Notes under the pieces: model-generated
The model's database searches: none
Told to the model about the DNA's origin: nothing
What the model saw: only the letters and a program-made list of their open reading frames with translations
Program-made: the position numbers and the translations under genes
Part shown: positions 50,988 to 64,000 of the stretch, one piece after another
Numbering within the stretch: position 1 is the first letter of the stretch
Layout of the letters: each line of letters opens with the position of its first letter
Assembly (NCBI GenBank): GCA_963790305.1
Contig: CAWBOC010000005.1
Location: 480,001-544,000 of the forward strand
Source: an uncultured Gemmatimonadaceae bacterium
GTDB lineage: Bacteria > Gemmatimonadota > Gemmatimonadetes > Gemmatimonadales > Gemmatimonadaceae
Length of the DNA stretch: 64,000 bases
Reading direction: 5' to 3'

Positions 50988-52151
50988 GTGGATTTCGCGC
51001 TGACCGCGGAGCAGGTCGAGCTCCGCGACAACGTTCTCGACTTCGCCCGCCGTGGTCTGAGTGCCGAGGCGGATGGAAGCGCCGCCGCGTCCATCGGCGG
51101 CTTCCGACGCGACCTGTGGGAACGCTGTGGGGAGTTCGGCATCCTCGGCTTGCCAGTCCCTAACGAGTACGGTGGCAGCGGGCACGACATGGTCACCACG
51201 ACCATCGCGATGGAGGCCCTCGGCGAGGGATGCCCCGATCACGGGCTGCTCTTCTCAATGCACGCGCACATGTGGGCAGTGGTGACGCCGATCATCGCGT
51301 TCGGTACACCGGAGCAGCGTGAACGCTATCTGCCGCGACTGGTGGACGGCTCATGGGTGGCGGCACATGGCATCAGCGAGCCCGGGTCCGGCTCCGACGC
51401 GTACTCGATGCGGGCGCGCGCGATCAAGGAGGGCGATCAGTACGTGCTGAACGGAACGAAGACGTTCGTGACGAACGCGCCGGTGGGTGACCTGTTCGTC
51501 GTCTTCGCCACCGTGAAGCCTGAACGCGGAATGTGGGGCGTGACCGCGTTTCTCATCGAGAAGGGAACGCCGGGACTTTCCGTCTCCCGTCCCTTCAAGA
51601 AGCTGGGTCTCACGACGTCGCCGATGGGCGAGGTCGTGCTCGACGATTGTCGCATCCCGGTTGCCAACCGGCTCGGGAAGGAAGGACAGGGTGCGACGAT
51701 CTTCAACCACTCGATGGGATGGGAGCGGAGCTGTATCCTTGCCAGTCAGGTGGGTCGAATGCAGCAGCAGCTCGACGCATGCGTTCGCTACGCCCAGGAG
51801 CGCGAACAGTTCGGGAAGCCGATTGGAAGCTTCCAGCTCGTCGCCGCCAAGATCGCCGACATGAAGGTGCGACTCGAGACGTCGCGCCTGCTCCTGTATC
51901 GCGCCGCGTGGCAGCTCTCGAGAGCCGCCGAGGGCAGTGCGATGGAAGCGGCGATGGCGAAGCTGTACATCAGCGAGTCAGCCGTGGCGTCGGCGCTCGA
52001 CGCCGTGCAACTGCACGGCGGCTATGGCTACATGCAGGACTTCCACGTCGAGCAGCAGTTGCGCGATTCCATTGGCGGCACCCTGTACTCCGGTACGTCG
52101 GAGATCCAGCGAATGCTCATCGCGCGCCACCTCGGACTCAGCCCCGCCTGA
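50988..52151 (+). CDS. Acyl-CoA dehydrogenase family, probable L-prolyl-S-PCP dehydrogenase (PltE/RedW/AnaB-like)
   Basis: ISEPGSGSD, LNGTKTFVTNAP, HSMGWERSCI, QLHGGYGY, YSGTSEIQR; adjacent to the A domain and PCP. Confidence 0.85.
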   Translation: MDFALTAEQVELRDNVLDFARRGLSAEADGSAAASIGGFRRDLWERCGEFGILGLPVPNEYGGSGHDMVTTTIAMEALGEGCPDHGLLFSMHAHMWAVVTPIIAFGTPEQRERYLPRLVDGSWVAAHGISEPGSGSDAYSMRARAIKEGDQYVLNGTKTFVTNAPVGDLFVVFATVKPERGMWGVTAFLIEKGTPGLSVSRPFKKLGLTTSPMGEVVLDDCRIPVANRLGKEGQGATIFNHSMGWERSCILASQVGRMQQQLDACVRYAQEREQFGKPIGSFQLVAAKIADMKVRLETSRLLLYRAAWQLSRAAEGSAMEAAMAKLYISESAVASALDAVQLHGGYGYMQDFHVEQQLRDSIGGTLYSGTSEIQRMLIARHLGLSPA

Positions 52152-52152
52152 C

Positions 52153-53748
52153 ATGAATTATCTCCTCTGGCATGCGCCGGCTCAGAGCGCGCGCGTATTT
52201 CCCAATCGACCGGCGGTGCAGGACACCGCCACGACCTTCACGCATCGCGAGCTGCACGAGCTCAGCAATGGCGTGGCTACCCTGCTCACGTCCTGCGGCC
52301 TAACGCGCGGTGAGCGCGTGGGAATGTGGATGCCGAAGCAGGCGCGCTCCGTCGCCGTCATGCTGGGCGCCTCGAAGTGCGGCGGCATCTACGTCCCTGT
52401 GGATCCGCAGGCCCCCGTCGAGCGGGCCGCGTACATCCTCGGCAACGCCGACATCAGCGTGCTGGTCACATCGCGCCGACTCCTGGCGTCGCTGTCGCAG
52501 CACATCGGAGCCTTTGCGTCCTTGCGCGCGATCGTCGTGGTCGATGAGAAGGACGCCGAGCTCTCGGGAAGGCCGGTGCCGACCTTCGGGTGGGGTGCCG
52601 TATCCCCGACGACGGAGCCGCCCGTGGTAGCGAACGCGGTGGACAGCGATCCCGCGTACATGCTCTACACGTCGGGCTCCACGGGAACACCCAAGGGCGT
52701 GGTGATCAGCCACCTCAACGCGCTCACCTTCATCGAGTGGACGATCGCGACGTTCGGTATTCGGCCCGAGGATCGACTGTCGGGCCACGCCCCGCTGCAC
52801 TTCGATCTTTCCGTGTTCGACATTTACGCCGCGCTCGGGACGGGTGCCTGCGTCGTGATGGTCCCCGACCGCATCGCACCCTTTCCAGCCGAGTTCGCGA
52901 AATGGATCGAGGACCAGAGGATCACGGTCTCGTACATGGTGCCCTCGGCGTTCATCCGGCTGCTGAAGCATGGTGAGCTCGAGCGGTTCAGCTATGCCTC
53001 GCTGCGCACGATCCTGTTCGCCGGCGAGGTGTTTCCGGTGAAGCACCTGCGCGAAGTGATGCCGCACTTCCCGAACGCGGACTGGTTCAATCTCTACGGG
53101 CCCACGGAGACGAACGTCTGCACGTGGACGCCTGTCCCCAAGCCGCTCGTTCAGGAGCATGAGCTCTCGATCGGCCAGTCGTGCGAGAACTTCGACTGCT
53201 TCGCGCTCACGAGCGATGGTCGCAAGGCGCGACCCGGAGAGGAAGGGGAGCTCGTCGTGCGCGGGCCTGGCGTCATGCTCGGCTACTGGAAGCTGCCCGA
53301 GCGCACGGCAAAGAATCTGACGCCAAATCCTCTGCACAAGGACTTCACCGATCTCATCTACCGCACCGGCGACCTGGTGCGCGTGCTCGAGGACGGCATC
53401 TCCTTCCAGTACATCGCTCGGCTCGACCATATGGTGAAGACACGCGGCTACCGCGTCGAGCTCGAGGAGATCGAGCACGTCCTGCACGCGAACACGCGCA
53501 TCCGCAACGCTGCGGTCGTGGCCATCCCCAATGACGAGGTCGGCGCGCGGCTTCGCGCGGCGGTCGTCGTCGAAGACGGGGACGGGCTGTCACAGCAGGA
53601 GCTTGCGACCCACTGTGCGACGAGGCTTCCGAGCTACGCGATTCCCGAGCTGTTCGTGATGATGCATGAGCTGCCCACGACGTCCACCGGGAAAGTGGAT
53701 CGTCGCAGTCTCGCCGAATCACTCGGACAATACACGGCGGCGGGGTGA
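52153..53748 (+). CDS. Stand-alone amino acid adenylation enzyme, predicted L-proline specific (PltF/RedM-like)
   Basis: YTSGSTGTPKG, FDLS, NLYGPTE, YRTGDL, TSTGKVDR; manually aligned specificity code D-L-F-Y-L-A-L-V-C-K. Confidence 0.88.
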   Translation: MNYLLWHAPAQSARVFPNRPAVQDTATTFTHRELHELSNGVATLLTSCGLTRGERVGMWMPKQARSVAVMLGASKCGGIYVPVDPQAPVERAAYILGNADISVLVTSRRLLASLSQHIGAFASLRAIVVVDEKDAELSGRPVPTFGWGAVSPTTEPPVVANAVDSDPAYMLYTSGSTGTPKGVVISHLNALTFIEWTIATFGIRPEDRLSGHAPLHFDLSVFDIYAALGTGACVVMVPDRIAPFPAEFAKWIEDQRITVSYMVPSAFIRLLKHGELERFSYASLRTILFAGEVFPVKHLREVMPHFPNADWFNLYGPTETNVCTWTPVPKPLVQEHELSIGQSCENFDCFALTSDGRKARPGEEGELVVRGPGVMLGYWKLPERTAKNLTPNPLHKDFTDLIYRTGDLVRVLEDGISFQYIARLDHMVKTRGYRVELEEIEHVLHANTRIRNAAVVAIPNDEVGARLRAAVVVEDGDGLSQQELATHCATRLPSYAIPELFVMMHELPTTSTGKVDRRSLAESLGQYTAAG

Positions 53749-53826
53749 CGGCATTGCGCAGTGCTCGACGGCCGGTGCAGCTTCAGCGCGGTGTCCTAAC
53801 GTGTTCTCCCATCGAATCGTACCAAC

Positions 53827-54078
53827 ATGCTACGGAATGACCTGACGAAGTTCATCCAGGAGAACCTCCTCCAGAAAGATCCGACCCCGGTCGGGCCGGA
53901 GGATTCCCTCATCGATAGCGGGATCATCAATTCGATGGGCCTGATCCGGCTCGTGAGCTTCATCGAGACTCGGACTGGCGTCCGCATTCCGGATGCGATG
54001 ATCACTCCGGACAACTTCGAGACGGTCACGGCGATCGAGCGGACGATCGACGAGGTGCGGCACCAGCGCGGGGTCTGA
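53827..54078 (+). CDS. Peptidyl carrier protein (PltL/RedO-like)
   Basis: GIINSMG phosphopantetheine site, GVRIP...NFETV.AI. Confidence 0.88.
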   Translation: MLRNDLTKFIQENLLQKDPTPVGPEDSLIDSGIINSMGLIRLVSFIETRTGVRIPDAMITPDNFETVTAIERTIDEVRHQRGV

Positions 54079-54940: not shown

Positions 54941-56350
54941 TTAGGCGGCGTTGCGCCTCGGCACTCGCAGGGTACGTGTTTCTCCATCCATGCCCTGCCG
55001 TATGACCAGCCGCGCATTCTGACAGATCGGGAAGTCATCGAACACCGGCTGTAGCGCGACCAGGAGCGCATCCGCGCTCGGTCCGTAGTGATAGAGTGCT
55101 GTCTCGGTAGGACCATTCCACGCGCCGCGCAGCTCACCGTTCACCGAATCGGCCGCCAGGGCGAGACGCTCCATCAGCGCGTCAATGTCCGTCTCCGCAT
55201 AGATCTCGTCGGGGAGGCTCGTGCCATCGAGGTAAACTGCCAGCCCTTCCTGCACGCCAAAGGGCTGTTCGACGTCCACGCCATCCTGCTGGAAGAGGAA
55301 TTGCGACCCCACGGGCGCGCCAGCGTCCTCGAGGATTCGCTTGGCGACATCGAGCGACTCGTCGAGATTCGCCAGCGACAACTCGACATCGACATACCCG
55401 ATCTCGGCGGCCGAGGTGAGCTGGGAGCCGCCGCCGGTGACCCATCCGAGCATGCGGATGCTGAGCGCGTCCTGCACTGGATCTTCGTAGCGCGCTCCAC
55501 GATCCATGGGCTCTATGTGCTCGGGGATGCGCGCAATGACGACATGCGGGAAGCGGTCACGGTCGACCACATCCTCGCGCACTGCTCCGAGGCGCAGCGG
55601 CGCGGGAGCGGCGCTGATCTCGCCGCGCATCCACTCCGGATGTCGCTGGATGGCATCGAGGATCGGCTCGCCCTGGATCTCGAAGTTCTCGCCGAGCATG
55701 GTTCGCAGCATCGGCTCGAACAGCCCGACGCCCAACTGCTCCCGGAATTCCGCGAGGGTGCGCTCGTCCTTGGCATAGCGCGCGAAGAGCTCGTCCGCAT
55801 CGGTCAGCCGCAGCGGAGCATGGCCCGTGGCGGCGACGCGCTCACCATGAGTCCGGAGGGTCGAGCGCGTGTCGACGGTGGCATCGACACGCTCGACGAC
55901 GAGGTCCGGCGGCATGGGGAGACCGTTGTCGATCGTTCCGCGCGCCGTCACGAGCACACGCCCATCGGCGAGCCAGCTGTGGAGGACGAGGCACTGTACC
56001 GGGTCGCCCTCGGCCGCGGGCACCTCGAACCACATGGCGGCGATCGCGCCGTGGGCGCCGAGCGCGAACCGGACGAACGACTTCTTCGACACGTCGGTGA
56101 GGATGAGCGCGGCGTCCTCGAAATCGCCCAGCGTCTCGAAGCCGACTCTCGTCAGCTCGCGCTCGACTCTCTGGTAAAAGCTGACGTCACGCTCGGGGAA
56201 ATCGGACGCATCCACCCGCTCGTAGCGGGCGCGATGCTCGATCATCGTCCGAATCTGGGCCACGAGCGTTTGCGCTACCTGCTCGAAGACCTCGGCCGGA
56301 AGGGCATCGCCGACTCCATTGCCGTCGTCCTCGTATTCGTCTGCTTGCAT
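54941..56350 (-). CDS. Conserved-looking acidic hypothetical protein
   Basis: GGGAG RBS before ATG 56350; PMDRG.RYEDP...G.VTGGGSQ, GLAVYLDG, GPTETALY. Confidence 0.72.
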   Translation of the reverse strand: MQADEYEDDGNGVGDALPAEVFEQVAQTLVAQIRTMIEHRARYERVDASDFPERDVSFYQRVERELTRVGFETLGDFEDAALILTDVSKKSFVRFALGAHGAIAAMWFEVPAAEGDPVQCLVLHSWLADGRVLVTARGTIDNGLPMPPDLVVERVDATVDTRSTLRTHGERVAATGHAPLRLTDADELFARYAKDERTLAEFREQLGVGLFEPMLRTMLGENFEIQGEPILDAIQRHPEWMRGEISAAPAPLRLGAVREDVVDRDRFPHVVIARIPEHIEPMDRGARYEDPVQDALSIRMLGWVTGGGSQLTSAAEIGYVDVELSLANLDESLDVAKRILEDAGAPVGSQFLFQQDGVDVEQPFGVQEGLAVYLDGTSLPDEIYAETDIDALMERLALAADSVNGELRGAWNGPTETALYHYGPSADALLVALQPVFDDFPICQNARLVIRQGMDGETRTLRVPRRNAA

Positions 56351-56438
56351 CTCCCGCTCTAGATGAAAGGGCTGGAGGAGAGACTGGTCAGACGGCGGGG
56401 AGGCAACGGGACGCCGTTCGCAGTATTCTTCCCGCACG

Positions 56439-57602
56439 ATGTTCCACGACCCGCCTCGGTTTCCGCGCGGCTTTCGAACGGCGAGCCGCAACTGCGGCCT
56501 CAAGCCGTCGGCGAAAGACCTCGCCGTGTTCGTGAGCCAAGTGGACGCTGCCGCGGCGGCGGTGTTCACGCGCAATCTCTTTCCCGGAGCGCCGGTACTG
56601 CTGGGGCGGGAGACGATTCGCGGTGGCGTACTCCGGGCAATCGTCGTGAACAGCAAGGTGAGCAACGTGGCGACGGGAGAGCGTGGTCTCGCGGCAGCAC
56701 GGCGCATGGCGACGGCGGCTGCTCAGGCGTTAGGCACGTCGCCCGATCGCGTGCTCGTCAGCTCGACCGGCGTCATCGGCGTTCCCCTGCCCATCGAGAA
56801 GATCGAGCGAGGACTCAATGGCATCGCGGACGATCTCGTCGATGATCCGCGCGTTGGCGCCGAGGGCATCATGACGACCGACTCGCATCCCAAGGCGCTC
56901 TCGCTGGGCGTCGGTGATGCCACCATCACCTGGGTGGCGAAAGGCTCCGGAATGATCGAGCCGAACATGGCGACGATGCTGTCCTACATCATGACGGACG
57001 CGGCGATCACGGCGCAGGCGCTCGACCGGCTCCTGCGCGAGGTCGTGGACGTCTCGTTCAACATGCTGTCGGTCGACACCGACACGAGCACGTCCGATAC
57101 CTGCGTCATTCTCGCCAATGGCCTGGCCGGACCGGTCGAGGGCGATGCCTTTCGCAAGGCGCTCACGACGGGATCCCTTCGCATGACGGAAATCCTCGCA
57201 CGCGACGGGGAAGGCGCAACCAAGCTGCTGCGGGCGACGGTCCGCGGCGCCGTCAATGCGGCCGAGGCGCGCCGGATCGCGAAGTCCATCGTGAACTCGC
57301 CGCTGGTGAAGACGATGGTCCACGGCGCCGATCCGAACGTTGGCCGGCTGCTCATGGCGGTCGGCAAGTGCTTCGAGTGCACGATTCGTCCAGAGGCCAC
57401 CGAGGCATGGATCAACGGCCAGAAGGTCGTGCACCAGGGCGAGCGGACGTCGTTCGAAGAATCCGCCGTGCGTGCCGCGCTCGCCACCGATACGACCGAT
57501 ATTCTTGTCTCGCTCGGGGTCGGCGACGGGGAAGCAACTGCCTTTGGGTGCGATCTTAGTGCGGGGTACATCTCTGAGAATGCGGCTTACTATTCCAGCT
57601 AA
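56439..57602 (+). CDS. argJ: Ornithine acetyltransferase / N-acetylglutamate synthase
   Basis: STGVIG, IMTTD, KGSGMIEPNMATML autoproteolysis site, RDGEGATK, SPLVKT, GCDLS..Y...NA.Y. Confidence 0.93.
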   Translation: MFHDPPRFPRGFRTASRNCGLKPSAKDLAVFVSQVDAAAAAVFTRNLFPGAPVLLGRETIRGGVLRAIVVNSKVSNVATGERGLAAARRMATAAAQALGTSPDRVLVSSTGVIGVPLPIEKIERGLNGIADDLVDDPRVGAEGIMTTDSHPKALSLGVGDATITWVAKGSGMIEPNMATMLSYIMTDAAITAQALDRLLREVVDVSFNMLSVDTDTSTSDTCVILANGLAGPVEGDAFRKALTTGSLRMTEILARDGEGATKLLRATVRGAVNAAEARRIAKSIVNSPLVKTMVHGADPNVGRLLMAVGKCFECTIRPEATEAWINGQKVVHQGERTSFEESAVRAALATDTTDILVSLGVGDGEATAFGCDLSAGYISENAAYYSS

Positions 57603-57619
57603 TACCCAAGACGTTGTTT

Positions 57620-57658
57620 CTGATAACTGAAACCTGACGTCTGATCCCTGACGTCTTC
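57620..57658. repeat. CTGACGT/CTGATCC heptamer array
   Basis: CTGATAACTGAAACCTGACGTCTGATCCCTGACGTCT. Confidence 0.7.
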
Positions 57659-57670
57659 GGGTGTTGACCT

Positions 57671-58141
57671 ATGTCATCGATGCCGACTGTGCGTCGCGCT
57701 CACGTTCGTGACTCTGCTTCCATCTCAGAGCTGATCGGCCTCTACGTCGCCGACGGCACCCTCCTGCCGCGCGCCCCGGAGTTCATCGCCGAGCGGATCA
57801 TCGATTTTCTGGTGAGCGAGGAAGAAGGGCGGGTCGTCGGGTGCGTGCACCTCGACGAGTATTCACCGAGTCTCGTCGAGGTCCGGTCGCTGGCCGTCGA
57901 CCCGGATTACCAGCGGCGGGGAATCGGGATCGCGCTCGTCGAAGCGGCGGAGAAGCTGGCGCGCGTTCGCGAGTACGCCACGGTGTTCGCCGTCAGCAGC
58001 AACGAGGACTTCTTCCGCGCGCGCGGTTACGACATACGACACATCCCGGAGCTCGACCGCGAACGCAGCGAGGTGAGTCGCTACAAAGGGGTGTACGCCA
58101 AAGATCTGGGCGTGACGGCGCCAGCGACTCAATCCTTGTAG
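57671..58141 (+). CDS. GNAT acetyltransferase, short ArgA-like N-acetylglutamate synthase
   Basis: GTLLPR, VVGCVHL, EVRSLAV...QRRGIG; follows argJ. Confidence 0.8.
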   Translation: MSSMPTVRRAHVRDSASISELIGLYVADGTLLPRAPEFIAERIIDFLVSEEEGRVVGCVHLDEYSPSLVEVRSLAVDPDYQRRGIGIALVEAAEKLARVREYATVFAVSSNEDFFRARGYDIRHIPELDRERSEVSRYKGVYAKDLGVTAPATQSL

Positions 58142-59349
58142 GGATCGAACTCGTTGGCGCCAGCCATCACCACCACGAGTGGCCGCAGCGTGTGCAGCAC
58201 CTCGACCGTTCCTTCCTGGGCCGCGAGGACCTCGGGAAGACGACGGTAGACGTGCGGGCTCTCGTCGAGCCCGCCACCGCGCAGGATCACTCCCTTCGCA
58301 CCGATCCACTCTTTCATCATCTCCGGCGTGACGCGGCCGGGAGAGACGATGCGCGCCTTCGGGCCCCATCCCTTCTTCTTGCCGGCGGCCTGCGAGCGGG
58401 ACATCACACGCCCCGCGCCGTGCACCGTCGAGAACAGCGCCTCGCGCTGCACCGCCGCGACATCGTCGCCCTGGCGGCCCTGCACGATGACCGCGTCGTC
58501 CCCCATCGAGCCACCGATGAATCCCTTCTGACCGGGAAACGCCGGCGTCGCGCCCTTGCGAACGACCACGAACTCTTCGCCATCGTGCGTCTCCTTCCAG
58601 GCGAAGTTGTGGTGATTGTGCACGAGCTCCATCTCGCGACCGCCGAGGATGGACACGACCTTGCGAGCGACCCACTCGCGACCGGCATATGCGTACCGGC
58701 CGGCGAGATTCATCAGGTGCCAGTAGTCGTGGCCCAGCGGCTCGTTGATGTCGAGCAGCGCCTCGCGCTCAGGAACCCGCTCGCCCCACTTCTTCCCCTG
58801 GCCTAACGCGAGGAAGCCGGAGGCGACGGTGTGCCCAAAGCCGCGGCTGCCGAAGTGCACGCCGACCCACAGCGTGCCCGTCTCATCGGCGAAGACGTCA
58901 ACGTAGTGATTGCCGCTGCCGACGGTGCCCAGCTGCGAGCGCGCCTTGTCGACGAGCGTCTTCCGCTCGCGCGCAGGCGCGGCGTCCCACGCCTCATCGT
59001 GAAAGAGCGCGTGATCGATCGGCGCGTCATCGGCGCGATTCTTCCGCCCGATGCCGAAGCTGACCGTGTTGGCGATCTCATCGGCAATTGCTCCCAGTGC
59101 GCCACGCTGCGCGACGTCGGTGTCCCCGAGGTCTGCGACGGTGAGATTGGTGCGAATGGCCGCGTTGCCGCAGGCGATGTCGAAGCCGACGCCGACCACG
59201 GACACCTTGTCGCGGTAGGCGGCAACTCCGCCGATGGGCATGACGTAGCCCACGTGGCCGTCCGCCATGAGCGCAACACGCTCGGCGGTCTGTGCCACCT
59301 TCTGGAGCTGGATGATGGTTTGTTCGTCGTGCTGGCCGAAAATCTTCAT
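58129..59349 (-). CDS. rtcB: RNA 2',3'-cyclic phosphate/5'-OH ligase
   Basis: MADGH.GY..PIGGV, GFDIACG, GTVGSGNHY, HFGSRG, HHNFAW, RKGATP, HGAGR, DESP.VY. Confidence 0.95.
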   Translation of the reverse strand: MKIFGQHDEQTIIQLQKVAQTAERVALMADGHVGYVMPIGGVAAYRDKVSVVGVGFDIACGNAAIRTNLTVADLGDTDVAQRGALGAIADEIANTVSFGIGRKNRADDAPIDHALFHDEAWDAAPARERKTLVDKARSQLGTVGSGNHYVDVFADETGTLWVGVHFGSRGFGHTVASGFLALGQGKKWGERVPEREALLDINEPLGHDYWHLMNLAGRYAYAGREWVARKVVSILGGREMELVHNHHNFAWKETHDGEEFVVVRKGATPAFPGQKGFIGGSMGDDAVIVQGRQGDDVAAVQREALFSTVHGAGRVMSRSQAAGKKKGWGPKARIVSPGRVTPEMMKEWIGAKGVILRGGGLDESPHVYRRLPEVLAAQEGTVEVLHTLRPLVVVMAGANEFDPYKD

Positions 59350-59358
59350 GGACGTCTG

Positions 59359-59435
59359 AGGTCGTCGAGGTGGTCAAGGGTGTCGAGGTGATCGAGGTGT
59401 GGTCGCCTTGATCGCCTCGACGCCCTCGACAACCT
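59359..59435. repeat. Inverted array of 9-bp (GTCGAGGTG-like) units
   Basis: GAGGTCGTCGAGGTGGTCAAGGGTGTCGAGGTGATCGAGG...CCTTGATCGCCTCGACGCCCTCGACAACCTC. Confidence 0.8.
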
Positions 59436-59956
59436 CATTTCATGAACATTCCGCCCTTTTCGTCGCCCGAATCGTTGTACACGGCGGGGACACGGACGCC
59501 CAGGAGGCGGAAATAGGTTCCGAGCTGCGCTCGGTGGTGCACCATGTGGTTCAGGCAAAGCGTGCGATAAATGAGATAGCGGGGTTGCGTGAACAGCGCG
59601 GCGCCGTTGGCGACGAGTGACCATGACTTCTGCAGGTGCGGGTCGCTTGCCTTTCCGAGAGCGGCGCGCAACCCGAGCATGTTCGTGTCGAACATGTCGA
59701 GCATCTCCCGATGCGAACGCACGACTTCCTGCTGCGGCAGCGGCTCACCCCCGGGAGCGACATCGAGAGAATCCGTCGTGAGGGCGAACTGGCCCCACGT
59801 TGGAAGCACGGCGATGAAGGTCGCGAGCTCCCCCAACGTCATTGATTTGCTGTGCGGCTTGAATCCCAGACTCTCCATTGGAACGCGCTCGAGATGCTTC
59901 CGTGTGAACGCGGCTTCGAGATCGAGCTCCGGAAGCAGAAGGTCCCGCACGGGCAT
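59435..59956 (-). CDS. DinB family protein
   Basis: TRKHLERVP..KPH.KSMTLG.LA; NHMVHHRAQLGTYFRLLG..VP..Y. Confidence 0.88.
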   Translation of the reverse strand: MPVRDLLLPELDLEAAFTRKHLERVPMESLGFKPHSKSMTLGELATFIAVLPTWGQFALTTDSLDVAPGGEPLPQQEVVRSHREMLDMFDTNMLGLRAALGKASDPHLQKSWSLVANGAALFTQPRYLIYRTLCLNHMVHHRAQLGTYFRLLGVRVPAVYNDSGDEKGGMFMK

Positions 59957-59991
59957 TGGTATCTCTCCTGAAACGGTCGTTCCTGCACCCA

Positions 59992-60762
59992 TCACGCGCT
60001 TGCTTTCGCGCGAGAGGTGTGCCGTCGGGCCGCCAGCGACGCGTCGGCGCGTGCGCTGGCGAGCCCCACGTACAAACCGCGGCCGCTGAGGCCTTCAGCA
60101 TCGAAGACCGTGATGAGTCCGGCAGCGGTGAACGCCGACAGATACTGCTCATGTGTGAACAGCCGTACATGGTGCCGCTCGAAGAATCGCTCGACGCCGT
60201 TCTCCGACGCGACCATGTGGTGCATGTCGAGCACGGCGACGTCGCCTTCGCGCCGGCTCACGCCAACGCGCGCGATCTTCAACCCCTCACCCTCGGCGAC
60301 ATCGACGTGCAGGTGCCCGTCGATGAAGCGGTCCGGCGTGAGCCACGGCTCCACGATGACGAGACCACCCGGCAGAACGTGCCGTGCCATCGTCGCGATG
60401 GCGCGACGCAGCTCGCTCACGCTACCCAGGTAGCCGATCGCGCTGAACAAGCACGTGACGGCATCGAAGCGCTCGCCGAGGGCGAAGTGCCGCATGTCGT
60501 ACTGAAAGAGCGGCACGTCGGGCAGCCGACGGCGTGCGACGGCGATCATCCAGGGCGACAGCTCGACACCCTCGACATCGTACCAGGTCCGCAGGTGCGA
60601 GAGATGGACTCCCGTCCCGCACGCCACGTCGAGCAGCGTGCGACGTTCGCGGCGCGGCGTGCGCGCGCAACGGTCGATCACGCCGTGGATGAGGCGTGCT
60701 TCGTTCGCGTAGTCCTTCGTCGCGTAGATCACGTCGTAGAGCTCAGCCAATCGCGTATACAT
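59992..60762 (-). CDS. Class I SAM-dependent methyltransferase (TylM1/DesVI-like fold)
   Basis: YD.IY..KDY..EA, LLDVACGTG, DMR.F.LG..FDAVTCLFSAIGY, PGG...VEPW. Confidence 0.88.
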   Translation of the reverse strand: MYTRLAELYDVIYATKDYANEARLIHGVIDRCARTPRRERRTLLDVACGTGVHLSHLRTWYDVEGVELSPWMIAVARRRLPDVPLFQYDMRHFALGERFDAVTCLFSAIGYLGSVSELRRAIATMARHVLPGGLVIVEPWLTPDRFIDGHLHVDVAEGEGLKIARVGVSRREGDVAVLDMHHMVASENGVERFFERHHVRLFTHEQYLSAFTAAGLITVFDAEGLSGRGLYVGLASARADASLAARRHTSRAKASA

Positions 60763-60844
60763 GGTCCTGTCCTCGTGCATGGGCGGGGAGAGGAGGTGTT
60801 TGAGCCTTTACACCGCGAGCCTCTCCCCACCGGGACATCAAGTG

Positions 60845-60873
60845 CGAATGCGGAATGCGGAATTCGGAATTCG
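60845..60873. repeat. GAATGCG/GAATTCG heptamer array
   Basis: CGAATGCGGAATGCGGAATTCGGAATTCG. Confidence 0.75.
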
Positions 60874-60874
60874 A

Positions 60875-61204
60875 TTACTGATCTTCCCACGGCTTCTTGT
60901 CCGCCTTCTCTTCCCGCGCGAGGAAGCGCTCCTGACGGCGGTCCTTCGCGCGCTGCTCGGCGGTGCACTCGATCATTCCGATCACGTCCTTGCAGCGAAC
61001 GCGAATGCGGCAGCCCGAGATATCCCGGAACTCCAGCCACCGTGGACGCCAGCGTCGCGCGAGCACGCGCTGGATACGTTCCGCCTGCGGCATGCGCACG
61101 TTGTACCAGCCGTTTTCGCAGCGCACCACCCAGTAGTCGCGCGCAACCGGCTGTTCCTCGTCAGGCTTCTCCTCGTTTTTGAGATACTCTGCAATGCGGT
61201 TCAT
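60875..61204 (-). CDS. Hypothetical protein, first gene of the putative rtcB operon
   Basis: GGAG RBS before ATG 61204; beta-rich core and charged helical tail. Confidence 0.7.
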   Translation of the reverse strand: MNRIAEYLKNEEKPDEEQPVARDYWVVRCENGWYNVRMPQAERIQRVLARRWRPRWLEFRDISGCRIRVRCKDVIGMIECTAEQRAKDRRQERFLAREEKADKKPWEDQ

Positions 61205-61304
61205 CGTCTCACTCCGACAGCGTAGCACGGCGGAAGGCAGAATCGCCCTCGGCGCTGGGAGTCGCGTTCGCCATCACCTCGGGCGCCACGCCCCCGCCGG
61301 CCAC

Positions 61305-61350
61305 AAAAGAAATCGCCCCACCTGCTGTGCTTGCGCAGGTGGGGCGATGC
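61305..61350 (-). terminator. Strong intrinsic terminator/attenuator within the operon leader
   Basis: Minus strand ATCGCCCCACCTGC-N9-GCAGGTGGGGCGAT followed by TTCTTTT. Confidence 0.85.
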
Positions 61351-61385
61351 TGCCGACCCCTATCGGAGTGTCGGATGCTCCGCTG

Positions 61386-61565
61386 TTAGGCCGAGCTCCT
61401 CCCGTCTCCGCATCCTGCGCCTATCGTTCGCGCCATCCAGGCGTCGCTTCGCCGAACGTCTTCCCTCGTGGAAGGAATTCGCGCGAGCGCGCACGGCCGT
61501 CCCGCTGGCTGATGCTTGCCAGCCAGGCGGTACGTACCGAGTTGGAAGGTCGAGTGCGCGGTCAT
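61386..61565 (-). CDS. Putative 59-aa leader peptide (uORF)
   Basis: My translation: MTAHSTFQLGTYRLAGKHQPAGRPCALARIPSTREDVRRSDAWMARTIGAGCGDGRSSA*; it ends about 35 nt before the terminator; no strong RBS. Confidence 0.5.
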   Translation of the reverse strand: MTAHSTFQLGTYRLAGKHQPAGRPCALARIPSTREDVRRSDAWMARTIGAGCGDGRSSA

Positions 61566-61708
61566 TGGTATCAGATACGAGTTGCTATGCCTTCTGTTCG
61601 TTGGACCCCGGAAACGAGAATCGCGTCACGATGGTCGTGGTCCGAGCTCCACGCGATGTGGGGCGGAGAACAGCGACGACATCGGGACGCGACTCCCAGG
61701 GAGGCGTC

Positions 61709-61736
61709 AGTATAAGGGCGCTGCGGAGATTGTCAA
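61709..61736 (-). promoter_or_regulatory. Near-consensus sigma70 promoter
   Basis: Minus strand TTGACA-16 nt-TATACT. Confidence 0.75.
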
Positions 61737-61753
61737 GAGGGGGCGTTAGGTTT

Positions 61754-62416
61754 TCACGAGAATATGCCGCCGATGATCTCGAGTATCGCCTCGAACACGC
61801 TGCCGGCGGCGTCGGCGACACCTCCTGCCACGCCGCTGCTTGCTACAGCCTCGGCGGCTCCCGATAGCGCATACCCGGCCGCGCGTGCGCCGAGGAAGAG
61901 CACGTCGGGCATGTACAACAGAGAGTCGACTACGAGAAGGCCCGGGACATCGGCAGTCGTGGCGAGACCAGCTCTGCCGCGCCGAGTGACATCTCTCTCG
62001 AGGCTGAGCTTCCAGATCGCGGCGATCTCAGCGTGATCGAACCATACTCCGCGACATGACTTGCACACGTCGAGCCGGATGTTCTGATACGTCTGCGGCT
62101 CGAGCGTCTGCTGACACGCCGGACAATCGATGGTGTTGCGAGACCCGCAGCTCGCACATTCGTGCGCGTTCCGGTCGATGGGCGTGTGACAGGAATGACA
62201 GAGCGCTCGCGCATCGGGTGGGAACGGCGAGACATGATTCCAGAATGCCTGCGGCGGATGCCGACGCAGTCGCTGGATCTCGCCGAGCTCGAACCAGACG
62301 CCGCCGCACCGTCGGCAGTAGTCGAGCTCCAGCTCCTCCGCGAGACCGACCCGCGTCTTCTCGAGGTGCGATCCCAAACAGACCGGGCAGGGATAGCGCG
62401 GCTCGATCTTAGGCAT
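61754..62416 (-). CDS. zf-TFIIB-like multi-zinc-ribbon protein
   Basis: CPVC..DYCRRCGGVWFE.GE; CHSC, CASC; CPAC..DVCKSCRGVWFD. Confidence 0.82.
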   Translation of the reverse strand: MPKIEPRYPCPVCLGSHLEKTRVGLAEELELDYCRRCGGVWFELGEIQRLRRHPPQAFWNHVSPFPPDARALCHSCHTPIDRNAHECASCGSRNTIDCPACQQTLEPQTYQNIRLDVCKSCRGVWFDHAEIAAIWKLSLERDVTRRGRAGLATTADVPGLLVVDSLLYMPDVLFLGARAAGYALSGAAEAVASSGVAGGVADAAGSVFEAILEIIGGIFS

Positions 62417-62858
62417 CGAGAATTCCCTTCGCGTGCGGTTTGTCCGCAAGGTTCTTGACATCGTGAAAAACATAGACGACGACACCGGAGTCGGTCACTT
62501 CGACATCAGCAAGCTGTCGAACCATGAGTGACTCGAGGAGCTCGTTGGCTTTCTCAGGCGTGATCGCGAACTCGGTGACCAGCTCAACGGCGGTGAGCCG
62601 GCCCTGCCGTTGGGCGGCGAGGCGCAGAATTTCCGATTCGTAGGTCTGCTGGCGCAGCACTTCTCGTCGTTCCGCCAGGCGAGCACCACCTCTCAAACGC
62701 TTGGTGAGCAACGCGATCCCACCGAGCGCCGGCAGCGCGACGGTAATGAGCAGCGCGGCGATGGTCGCCGGCGCGCTGGTCTCCGCGCCGGAACGCAGGA
62801 AGCCCAGGAGCATGAAGCCAGCGAGCGCGAGCAGAGCGAAACCGACGACCTTTGTCAC
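62409..62858 (-). CDS. Hypothetical membrane protein with two TMs and a winged-helix-like C-terminus
   Basis: Two hydrophobic segments; ILRLA...GRLTA.E...SGVVVYVF; overlaps the downstream gene. Confidence 0.75.
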   Translation of the reverse strand: MTKVVGFALLALAGFMLLGFLRSGAETSAPATIAALLITVALPALGGIALLTKRLRGGARLAERREVLRQQTYESEILRLAAQRQGRLTAVELVTEFAITPEKANELLESLMVRQLADVEVTDSGVVVYVFHDVKNLADKPHAKGILDA

Positions 62859-63020
62859 CGTCGAAAATCCTTCGCAGAGGTCTACGCAATACTACGTGCG
62901 TGGTGCGTCGCGCGCTTCATTCGCGATCACTGACGATCGAGTCGACGTGGCACCGCCAATGCGGTATAGTAGCACTCGGACAAATTTCCCTCTCAGCCCT
63001 TGCCTCGGAAGGAGGCTCGT

Positions 63021-63683
63021 ATGGCTATTGCCCGGTGGGTTGCTTCCGCCCTCGCCGTCGCCGCAATGATACCCGCGACTGGTCTGACGCAGCCGAACGT
63101 GAACTTCAAGGATTCGTGGTTCTGGGGGGTGAAGGGGGGAGTGATCTCGTTTTCCACCGCGACGGTCGATGGCCGCGTCGAGCCTGTCGTCGGTGGGGAA
63201 TGGCTGCTGACGCGCACACAGGGCGGGCTGTACGTGTCGTACGATCAATCGATGTTCGACGCGAGCTCCGCGTTCGAGGACACAACGGGGCAGTCGCGCA
63301 CGGTGACCATACGTGACCTGCGGCGACTGACCGTAGCGGCGATGGCGTTTCCGTTATTCCTCGACGCGGGTTTCGCGTCGATCCGGCCCTACGCGGGTGC
63401 CGGGTTCGCGCTCAACTTCATTCGGTCCGCCGCGCTCGTCGGCGCGCCGCCGACCGACACCATTCTCCGGAAAGACGTGAACAATCGCCTCGAGGAGGAG
63501 CGCGACCGAGCCGCCCCGGTGTTGATACTCGGGCTTCAGTTCCAGGTGGGACGATTGGCGGTCTTTGCGCAGGGCACGGCGATGCCGGCGGAAGCGGAAT
63601 TCTTCCTCAACGGCCGCCCGACGGTGTTCGCCGAGGCGGGGTTACGCTTCAACGCGGGCAGCTCGAAATCGAGGAGAGACTAG
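63021..63683 (+). CDS. Secreted outer-membrane beta-barrel-like protein
   Basis: AAGGAGG RBS, signal peptide, amphipathic strands, PYAGAG, C-terminal EAGLRF. Confidence 0.72.
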   Translation: MAIARWVASALAVAAMIPATGLTQPNVNFKDSWFWGVKGGVISFSTATVDGRVEPVVGGEWLLTRTQGGLYVSYDQSMFDASSAFEDTTGQSRTVTIRDLRRLTVAAMAFPLFLDAGFASIRPYAGAGFALNFIRSAALVGAPPTDTILRKDVNNRLEEERDRAAPVLILGLQFQVGRLAVFAQGTAMPAEAEFFLNGRPTVFAEAGLRFNAGSSKSRRD

Positions 63684-63690
63684 AACGGCA

Positions 63691-63783
63691 GAGGTCGTCG
63701 AGGGTGTCAATGTGATCGAGGGTGTCGAGGTAAAAAGCCGTTACCTCGACACCCTCGACGACATCGACATCCTTGACTACCTC
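63691..63783. repeat. Inverted array of 9-bp units between convergent genes
   Basis: GAGGTCGTCGAGGGTGTCAATGTGATCGAGGGTGTCGAGGTAA...TTACCTCGACACCCTCGACGACATCGACATCCTTGACTACCTC. Confidence 0.85.
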
Positions 63784-63787
63784 CGCT

Positions 63788-64000
63788 TCATACCGGGAAC
63801 AGCATCTCCCGATACTTCGGCAGCGGCCACAGCTCGTCGGCCACCACCAGCTCGAGCTTGTCGCACGCCGCACGCACTCCAGCCATCGCCTCCGCGCCCG
63901 TCGACGTCAGCATCTTCGCGCACTTGTCGAGATCGTCGTGCATGTGCTCCGCCTTCTCGATGACCGCGGCCAGCTTCTCCCGCTCGGCGCGCAGATCCTC
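63788..64000 (-). CDS. Glutamine synthetase type III, C-terminal part (runs off the window)
   Basis: My translation ends ...VRAACDKLELVVADELWPLPKYREMLFPV*, the typical GSIII terminus; not in the ORF track. Confidence 0.85.
   Translation of the reverse strand, partial: EDLRAEREKLAAVIEKAEHMHDDLDKCAKMLTSTGAEAMAGVRAACDKLELVVADELWPLPKYREMLFPV

Follow-up and report, generated by a model that had tools for sequence, protein, structure and literature searches.

The rtcB operon in the window (the whole 64,000-nt stretch of DNA analysed) is preceded by a leader in which a sigma70-type promoter, a 5'-terminal hairpin (H1), a uORF (upstream open reading frame), a terminator hairpin (T2) and a long bulged hairpin (H3) follow one another. 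Sequence comparison establishes the order, spacing and complementarities of these predicted elements, together with their link to RtcB and Ro60. The leader is real and conserved, with a ribosome-sensing stage that is probably right and represents a variation on known attenuators. As a whole, it may constitute a two-stage transcription attenuator of RNA-repair operons in which H3 opens H1 in trans, an interpretation that we adopt tentatively and that falls just short of an even prospect. The H1-uORF-T2-H3 leader of Gemmatimonadota is undescribed in the literature searched.

Position and distribution of the leader

The minus-strand leader is flanked on one side by a zinc-ribbon gene and on the other by an operon encoding a 109-aa protein, a methyltransferase, a DinB-family protein and RtcB (Table 1). 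Its promoter is the better of the two sites found by a promoter scan of positions 55000-64000. In related loci, a promoter with at least 9/12 consensus matches precedes H1 in 38/46 cases, and the -10 element ends 6-15 nt (mode 9) ahead of the invariant H1 5' arm. No internal promoter-like site was seen at 8/12 or more consensus matches, which speaks against the separate downstream promoter that an earlier note on this DNA had named as a possible driver of the operon. That note had described the promoter, the 59-aa uORF, a small hairpin and a GC-rich 14-bp terminator with a U-tract, all of which are present; its inventory nevertheless missed the conserved H1 and H3 with its box. The gene that it called dinB belongs to the DinB family (PF05163), a family distinct from DNA polymerase IV. 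The DinB-family gene is missing from the rtcB operon in two close relatives, and the rtcB gene is the sole one found in the genome (94% complete).

The 109-aa protein has 268 homologues and gave no match against Pfam or NCBIfam. Its structure model (pLDDT 81) has a best fold match of Z 5.3, and fold searches yielded nothing at E 0.001 and no Z above 5.3; the weak matches are to Sm/Hfq/SH3-like folds, the Sm/Hfq-like ones at Z 3.0-3.7. Elsewhere in the window, a short ATTCCGC tandem repeat at 60840-60875 lies past the stop codon and has many copies in the genome, often as inverted pairs. Long intergenic hairpins of GTCGAGG-like units occur at 59350-59434 and 63697-63780 and probably form a repeat family, while the translations of 50988-54078 resemble a cluster of acyl-CoA dehydrogenase, adenylation enzyme and carrier protein.

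The leader is matched in 7/8 genomes of the same genus. Among 401 genomes of the phylum, a motif of 18 nt taken from the leader's 5' end gave 40 matches in 36 genomes (reversed control, 1); nine of these were judged to be chance, the rest of the structure being absent, and 31 in 29 genomes were kept. A gapped H1 pattern proved too narrow (9/401 genomes). A pattern anchored on T2, chosen so as not to select on the uORF or H1, matched in 58/401 genomes (reversed control, 2) and in at least 120 metagenome stretches. The sample used for statistics joined 30 genome loci and 120 metagenome stretches, yielding 136 distinct loci, 128 with enough upstream DNA and 91 after 75% dereplication; p-values are overstated because kin remain among the dereplicated loci. 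A plasmid search for the leader gave no match, and none of 40 matches in viral contigs carried the 5' arm, T2 or the promoter. Rfam and ARAGORN reported nothing on the leader, and its identification as an Rfam leader, riboswitch, T-box, tRNA or tmRNA was rejected for want of a curated-model match.

Table 1. Features of the leader and the operon downstream of it, in window coordinates
Feature	Position	Strand	Basis
Sigma70-type promoter TTGACA-16-TATACT	61709..61736	-	11/12 consensus matches
H1, 5'-terminal hairpin, predicted first terminator	61610..61700	-	Folding and conservation
59-aa uORF, conserved in position but not in peptide	61386..61565	-	Open reading frame
Antiterminator strand GCGCAGG (predicted)	61414..61420	-	Pairs with CCUGCGC 61339-61333
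Hairpin around uORF stop codon; predicted scaffold of antiterminator junction	61364..61410	-	Folding
Small switch hairpins	61341..61374	-	61374-61353 in one fold
T2, terminator hairpin of 14 bp followed by U-rich tail	61304..61348	-	Perfect arms
H3, long bulged hairpin downstream of T2	61223..61303	-	Folding and conservation
H3 apex box ACGCGACUCCC, complementary to leader 5' end	61267-61257	-	Invariant 11 nt
Unnamed 109-aa protein, often in these operons; predicted small beta-barrel	60875..61204	-	Structure model
Class I SAM methyltransferase	59992..60762	-	PF13649 and others
DinB-family protein	59435..59959	-	PF05163
RtcB RNA ligase	58129..59349	-	PF01139, 218 bits

The uORF and the terminator T2

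The arms of T2 (61348-61335 and 61325-61312) pair at -29.8 kcal/mol. A terminator pattern scan called none, T2 being passed over because its 9-nt loop exceeds the 8 nt permitted by the scan; the U-tracts in the window's leader are interrupted. The leader as a whole folds with a z-score of -4.85 against 100 shuffles. When the nascent RNA is folded as far as the T2 loop, the predicted structure is a three-way junction (-45.1 kcal/mol) closed by 7 bp between GCGCAGG and CCUGCGC, which contains the stop-codon hairpin and a second hairpin burying the remainder of the T2 5' arm. The antiterminator strand is located 26-32 nt upstream of the uORF stop codon, and an alternative small hairpin containing the T2 5' arm (61360-61341) appears in the antiterminator fold. 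Once the T2 3' arm has been made, the terminator fold wins (-57.8 vs -46.5 kcal/mol). Folding, which the earlier note had suggested as a check, thus predicts mutually exclusive antiterminator and T2 structures; the antiterminator drawn there stands in its 7-bp part, whereas the additional AUGC:GCAU pairs would cost 8.4 kcal/mol.

In the proposed mechanism, a ribosome completing the uORF would let T2 form and transcription stop, and a missing or stalled ribosome would result in read-through of T2 into the repair genes. On bare nascent RNA, the GCGCAGG strand and the stop-codon hairpin junction would capture the T2 5' arm before its 3' arm exists. A ribosome at the stop codon would remove about 20 kcal/mol of the antiterminator state, acting more by melting the stop-codon hairpin scaffold, kinetically or sterically, than by masking the antiterminator.

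Comparative data bear on this mechanism at several levels. In 70/91 loci, an ATG-initiated frame of 25 codons or more terminates 25-41 nt ahead of T2, vs 0-9/91 in seven other 17-nt control windows, of which the more distant ones offer less space. Counting stop codons irrespective of frame gives 78 in the same interval across the 91 loci, vs 11-24 in control windows. Upstream of the stop codon, an RCAG motif is found in 59/73 uORF-bearing loci and is absent in 14; it is placed exactly 30 nt before the stop in 28 and is in frame in 43/59. Its purine tracks the T2 pyrimidine (C/G 43, U/A 10, C/A 3, U/G 3; n = 59), giving an antiterminator-T2 covariation of p = 1e-6 with kin not independent. The conservation in relatives proposed as a check in the earlier note is therefore found for both the uORF position and the covarying antiterminator. 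The antiterminator forms in 69/73 nascent folds vs 25/73 shuffled, and at least four pairs enclose the uORF stop codon in 63/73 loci vs 20/73 shuffled. In close relatives with intact leaders, uORF indels are multiples of three, and in one genome (G003) the ATG, frame, H1, T2 and H3 have all been lost together.

The occupied state was simulated by blocking 15 nt on each side of the stop codon, which we take to be the size of the ribosome footprint. The block weakens the antiterminator state on average from -42.5 to -22.3 kcal/mol, with the antiterminator helix still forming in 59/73 equilibrium folds; switching must therefore depend on kinetics or steric effects. The claim that a ribosome at the uORF end masks the antiterminator accordingly fares poorly in these folds, which make melting of the stop-codon hairpin the more probable event. 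The last uORF residue is Pro in 25/73 loci, with all four codons used, and the window's peptide ends in Ala. The Pro endings would be in keeping with slow termination at a Pro-stop.

The peptides themselves are mostly unrelated in sequence across related loci and, in 39 loci, are 24-140 aa long (first-ATG calls, the upper values being rough). They are rich in Arg, Ala, Gly and Ser, with no single sensed residue evident. Alternatively, the uORF could be considered incidental, with T2 controlled by a protein antiterminator or a metabolite, or ending a noncoding RNA, and the operon driven from elsewhere. The window's ATG has no nearby Shine-Dalgarno-like site, such sites are weak in many relatives, and non-synonymous changes are as frequent as synonymous ones, as this explanation would have it. 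Yet the stop position, the antiterminator frame and triplet indels are kept across unrelated peptides, and the leader has neither an internal promoter-like site nor an Rfam family, making an incidental uORF very improbable. Taken by itself, the proposition that translation trouble leads to read-through is highly probable on these comparisons. Ribosome-dependent attenuation, as the earlier note had claimed, is well supported by the fixed stop-T2 spacing, the triplet indels and the covariation, although the mechanism was incomplete in that it lacked the H1/H3 layer. The uORFs of six dksA/USP-type operons (L055, L058, L067, L019, L260 and L305) share an HRTRVS-like motif which, unlike the otherwise unconserved uORFs, is possibly a stalling sequence.

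H1, H3 and their proposed pairing in trans

The start of H1 lies a few bases at most from the predicted transcription start. In the window, it consists of a 5' arm (61697-61680), a structured insert, a 3' arm (61633-61616) and a U-rich tail. Of 48 loci, 44 share the same 14 nt at its start, its 3' arm changes almost solely by G-U wobble, and U makes up a mean of 6.9 of the 10 nt past the stem (46 loci; no arm called in two). The insert spans 22-91 nt in most loci, which is unusual for a terminator, and a few loci (L127, L094) have a short H1 loop, which would allow hardly any time for pairing in trans.

The H3 box is exact in 49/55 loci and unpaired at the apex; in the window, the box region and the H1 5' arm can form a 13-bp duplex. 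Two-sided changes affect 12/15 pairs of the H3 stem (45 sequences), with a covariation score of 0.356 vs 0.198 shuffled and at most 0.182 slid, in an alignment fitted to a hand-given structure in which just 70.6% of cells pair; RNAalifold on the plain alignment returned no H3 consensus. Of 64 loci, 36 carry both H1 and the box, 22 carry neither, six have H1 without the box and none has the box without H1. Among 11 new matches to an H3 model, nine have H1 and T2 upstream, and the other two look like chance.

H3 is transcribed some 350 nt after H1 and is therefore too late to act on the H1 of the same molecule. Closure of the leader in cis by the box was rejected, the forced pairing being 10.8 kcal/mol worse. 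The duplex of the box with the leader 5' end is stronger than H1's own 3' arm in 38/40 loci. Cofolds of H3 with nascent H1, computed without kissing complexes, reach -5 kcal/mol or better in 24/40 loci, vs 11/40 with a shuffled box, and predicted binding is weak in 16/40. In two genomes of one genus (G282 and G511), H1 stands before dksA/traR, and a uORF, T2 and H3 without H1 lie on the divergent strand. The presence of H1 and H3 on divergent transcripts suggests action in trans; the H3 box of these genomes varies by one base, and their predicted net H3-H1 binding is just 0 to -2 kcal/mol. In another genome (G004), H1 occurs alone some 60 nt upstream of the RNA-repair operon hen1-pnkp (L076:1000-5144; G004:C42), with a full cassette elsewhere in the genome.

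Read-through of T2 would produce H3, whose box would pair in trans with the 5' ends of new transcripts and keep the predicted first terminator H1 from closing, so that the response is amplified; other H1-led operons, such as hen1-pnkp, would also be switched on. As a model, termination at H1 and its opening by H3 in trans, with the resulting positive feedback and activation of other H1-led operons, is possible, if somewhat short of an even prospect.

The main competitor, itself unlikely but to be taken seriously, accepts the attenuator as described and regards H1 and H3 as binding sites for one protein, or as elements that protect the 5' end in cis and direct the processing of the long transcript. 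The box and the H1 5' arm are invariant with no compensatory change seen, which fits protein recognition equally, and H3 is in cis with H1 and T2 in the nine credible model matches. H1 also persists, intact, in four genomes (G013, G095, G352 and G185) where the H3 model found no H3, these being drafts of 190-540 contigs and the model having also missed the real H3 of G282. A candidate binder would be the 109-aa barrel protein, which follows 17/47 full cassettes and has the weak Sm/Hfq-like fold matches described above, or Ro60. In addition, tRNAs and YrlA-like RNAs are often located downstream of H3. However, Ro60 (TROVE) was not found in the window's genome, and a protein site leaves unexplained why H3 shows an exact 11-nt complement in a loop. 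Finished H1 is invaded by H3 at -5 kcal/mol or better in just 1/40 cofolds and is left uninvaded in the other 39, and G282 and G511 keep H3 on transcripts without H1; both observations weigh against the protein or cis explanation.

The direction of control could instead be reversed or negative, such that the short H1 transcript is a small RNA with H3 as its target or sponge, or that H3 promotes decay of the leader. H1 would indeed yield a constitutive RNA, some 90-120 nt long, whose ends are paired and which has a U tail, and the sign of an effect cannot come from equilibrium energies. Against this, the 5' arm is buried in finished H1, and in G282 H3 has no downstream gene to regulate, no gene being called past it on its strand and a convergent gene following. 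The loop-displayed, bulged apex of H3 looks instead like that of antisense effectors. Similar apices are found in IS10 RNA-OUT and plasmid antisense RNAs. We consider the reversed scheme improbable, and retain opening of H1 by H3 as the working interpretation.

Further explanations were rejected. A mobile element with 13-bp inverted ends is at odds with the single exact 5' arm in the genome and a 3' arm that varies like RNA; no second full-length leader copy was present among the matches listed. The idea that the 5' arm senses fragments of rRNA or tRNA was dismissed, as the best duplexes are no better than shuffles, 8-18/25 of which reach them. At 15/17 positions, the consensus of the H1 3' arm agrees with 23S rRNA (0/150 shuffles), a site that is presumably helix 89; the motif was picked after the match had been seen, and the matching part of H1 shows compensated variation in other families. 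A duplex of the H3 box with tRNA-Pro(GGG) is possible at -20.7 kcal/mol, one of 25 shuffles doing as well, in a match likewise made post hoc. The two sites lie at G000:C6:141057-141073 (23S rRNA) and G000:C1:15762-15835 (tRNA-Pro).

Known systems and downstream genes

The RtcR-independent control claimed in the earlier note holds in so far as no RtcR (PF06956) was matched in the 94% complete genome, with a positive Escherichia coli control, but such control is not new in kind. According to the accessible part of the report on Pseudomonas aeruginosa, the PA5471.1 leader peptide has been proposed to attenuate armZ, an RtcB-like gene, together with prfH, so that leader-peptide control of an RtcB-like gene without RtcR is already known (PMC12057347). 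Both systems combine a leader peptide with a downstream terminator, an arrangement proposed to open an RtcB-like gene upon ribosome impairment, RtcR being uninvolved in the Pseudomonas description (PMC12057347). They differ in that the RtcB here scores 72.8 bits vs a release_rtcB cut-off of 271.8, and in that the uORF here is long and variable; no PrfH over its cut-off was found in the 94% complete genome. The available sections of the Pseudomonas report mention nothing like H1 or H3 (PMC12057347).

The uORF-translation logic resembles that of the actinomycetotal whiB7/wblC attenuator, in which, as far as the accessible text goes, efficient translation leads to termination and inefficient translation to an antiterminator, with positive feedback (10.1101/2023.06.02.543512). 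The Gemmatimonadota leader shares the fixed short stop-terminator distance, found here in 70/91 loci. The genes are different, the uORFs here are without a single evident sensed residue, and feedback in the part of the whiB7 account consulted runs through WhiB7 protein at the promoter, whereas here it would be RNA.

In the portions available of the respective sources, RtcR operons are activated when RtcR binds broken tRNA (PMC7790460), and bacterial Y RNAs carry the motif GNCGAAN(0-1)G (PMC4201824). The cargo of these rsr-yrlBA-rtcBA operons, namely RtcB, Ro60 and Y-like RNAs, is alike (PMC7790460; PMC4201824), while a sigma70-type promoter and an attenuator, with no RtcR found, take the place of RtcR here. 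H1 was rejected as a Y RNA, the GNCGAAN(0-1)G motif being absent from its 5' arm, with no Rfam YrlA match and no TROVE.

Trans-acting RNAs that influence termination are known in several forms. In synthetic STARs, as outlined in the accessible text, a trans RNA pairs with the 5' half of an intrinsic terminator and blocks it (PMC5648800); the 11-nt box has the same complementarity to a terminator 5' half, and H3 is proposed to pair with that of the predicted terminator H1. Unlike engineered STARs, H3 would be a natural activator, encoded in the leader that it opens and made under ribosome control. T-box leaders also rely on a trans RNA preventing an intrinsic terminator, though their input in the available description is uncharged tRNA rather than an RNA from the leader (PMC7430163), and natural sRNAs acting on Rho-dependent termination are described in part of another source (PMC6582626). 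No natural equivalent of H1/H3 was found in print. The literature search found no account of this leader; neither the phylum nor rtcB matched in the main text of two motif surveys (PMC11109978; PMC8632094), whose supplements could contain the motif, and leader terms gave no match in PMC9223846. Were H1 indeed opened by H3 in trans, nature would have its own equivalent of engineered STARs, together with an RNA-only feedback loop. That H3 is a natural small transcription-activating RNA, providing RNA-only positive feedback and replacing RtcR as the master regulator of RNA repair in Gemmatimonadota, is possible, though rather less likely than not. If it is true, the H3 regulon would comprise RtcB, Ro60 with Y-like RNAs and spare tRNAs, Hen1-Pnkp and DksA/TraR. 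Bacterial RtcB is mostly understood through RtcR, to which the cassette would be an alternative driven by ribosome performance itself, in a phylum that is common and little studied.

Downstream genes were tallied for 81 dereplicated loci with 1.4-4.5 kb of downstream sequence, a mixed H1- and T2-anchored set that includes four rows of palindromic T2 read backwards. RtcB or Ro60 lies downstream of 33/47 full cassettes, of 2/9 loci with H1 and T2 (2/7 without the backward-read rows) and of 1/24 with uORF-T2 alone (1/22 without them). By gene neighbourhood, the predicted H1/H3 layer is the part of the cassette specific to RNA-repair operons. The uORF-T2 module alone precedes MATE pumps in 11/24 loci and DksA/TraR in 4/24, and EF-P lies downstream of a T2 in one further locus. 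Other downstream genes include EF-Ts, HPF, RsgA, USP, tRNA-Asp/Arg/His and sub-threshold YrlA-like RNAs. The core idea of ribosome sensing thus gains comparative support, including from the same module before other translation-stress genes, and the module may mark a translation-stress regulon in Gemmatimonadota covering MATE pumps, DksA/TraR, EF-Ts, EF-P and HPF.

Several individual loci merit mention. In the window's genome, a second uORF-T2 module with no recognisable H1/H3 precedes a DksA/TraR-like ORF outside the window (G000:C5:311900-312580). Modules without H1/H3 stand directly before MATE genes at L084-L088, L108, L142, L147, L173 and L287-L289, which suggests antibiotic-inducible efflux through the same attenuator. 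A full cassette precedes a protein of roughly 200 aa with an EF-Ts domain at L188, L192, L128 and L131. Extra genes for tRNA-Asp(GUC), tRNA-Arg(ACG/UCG) and tRNA-His(GUG), together with sub-threshold YrlA-like RNAs, lie inside the operons of L057, L064, L069, L073, L074, L114, L137, L148, L168 and L179.
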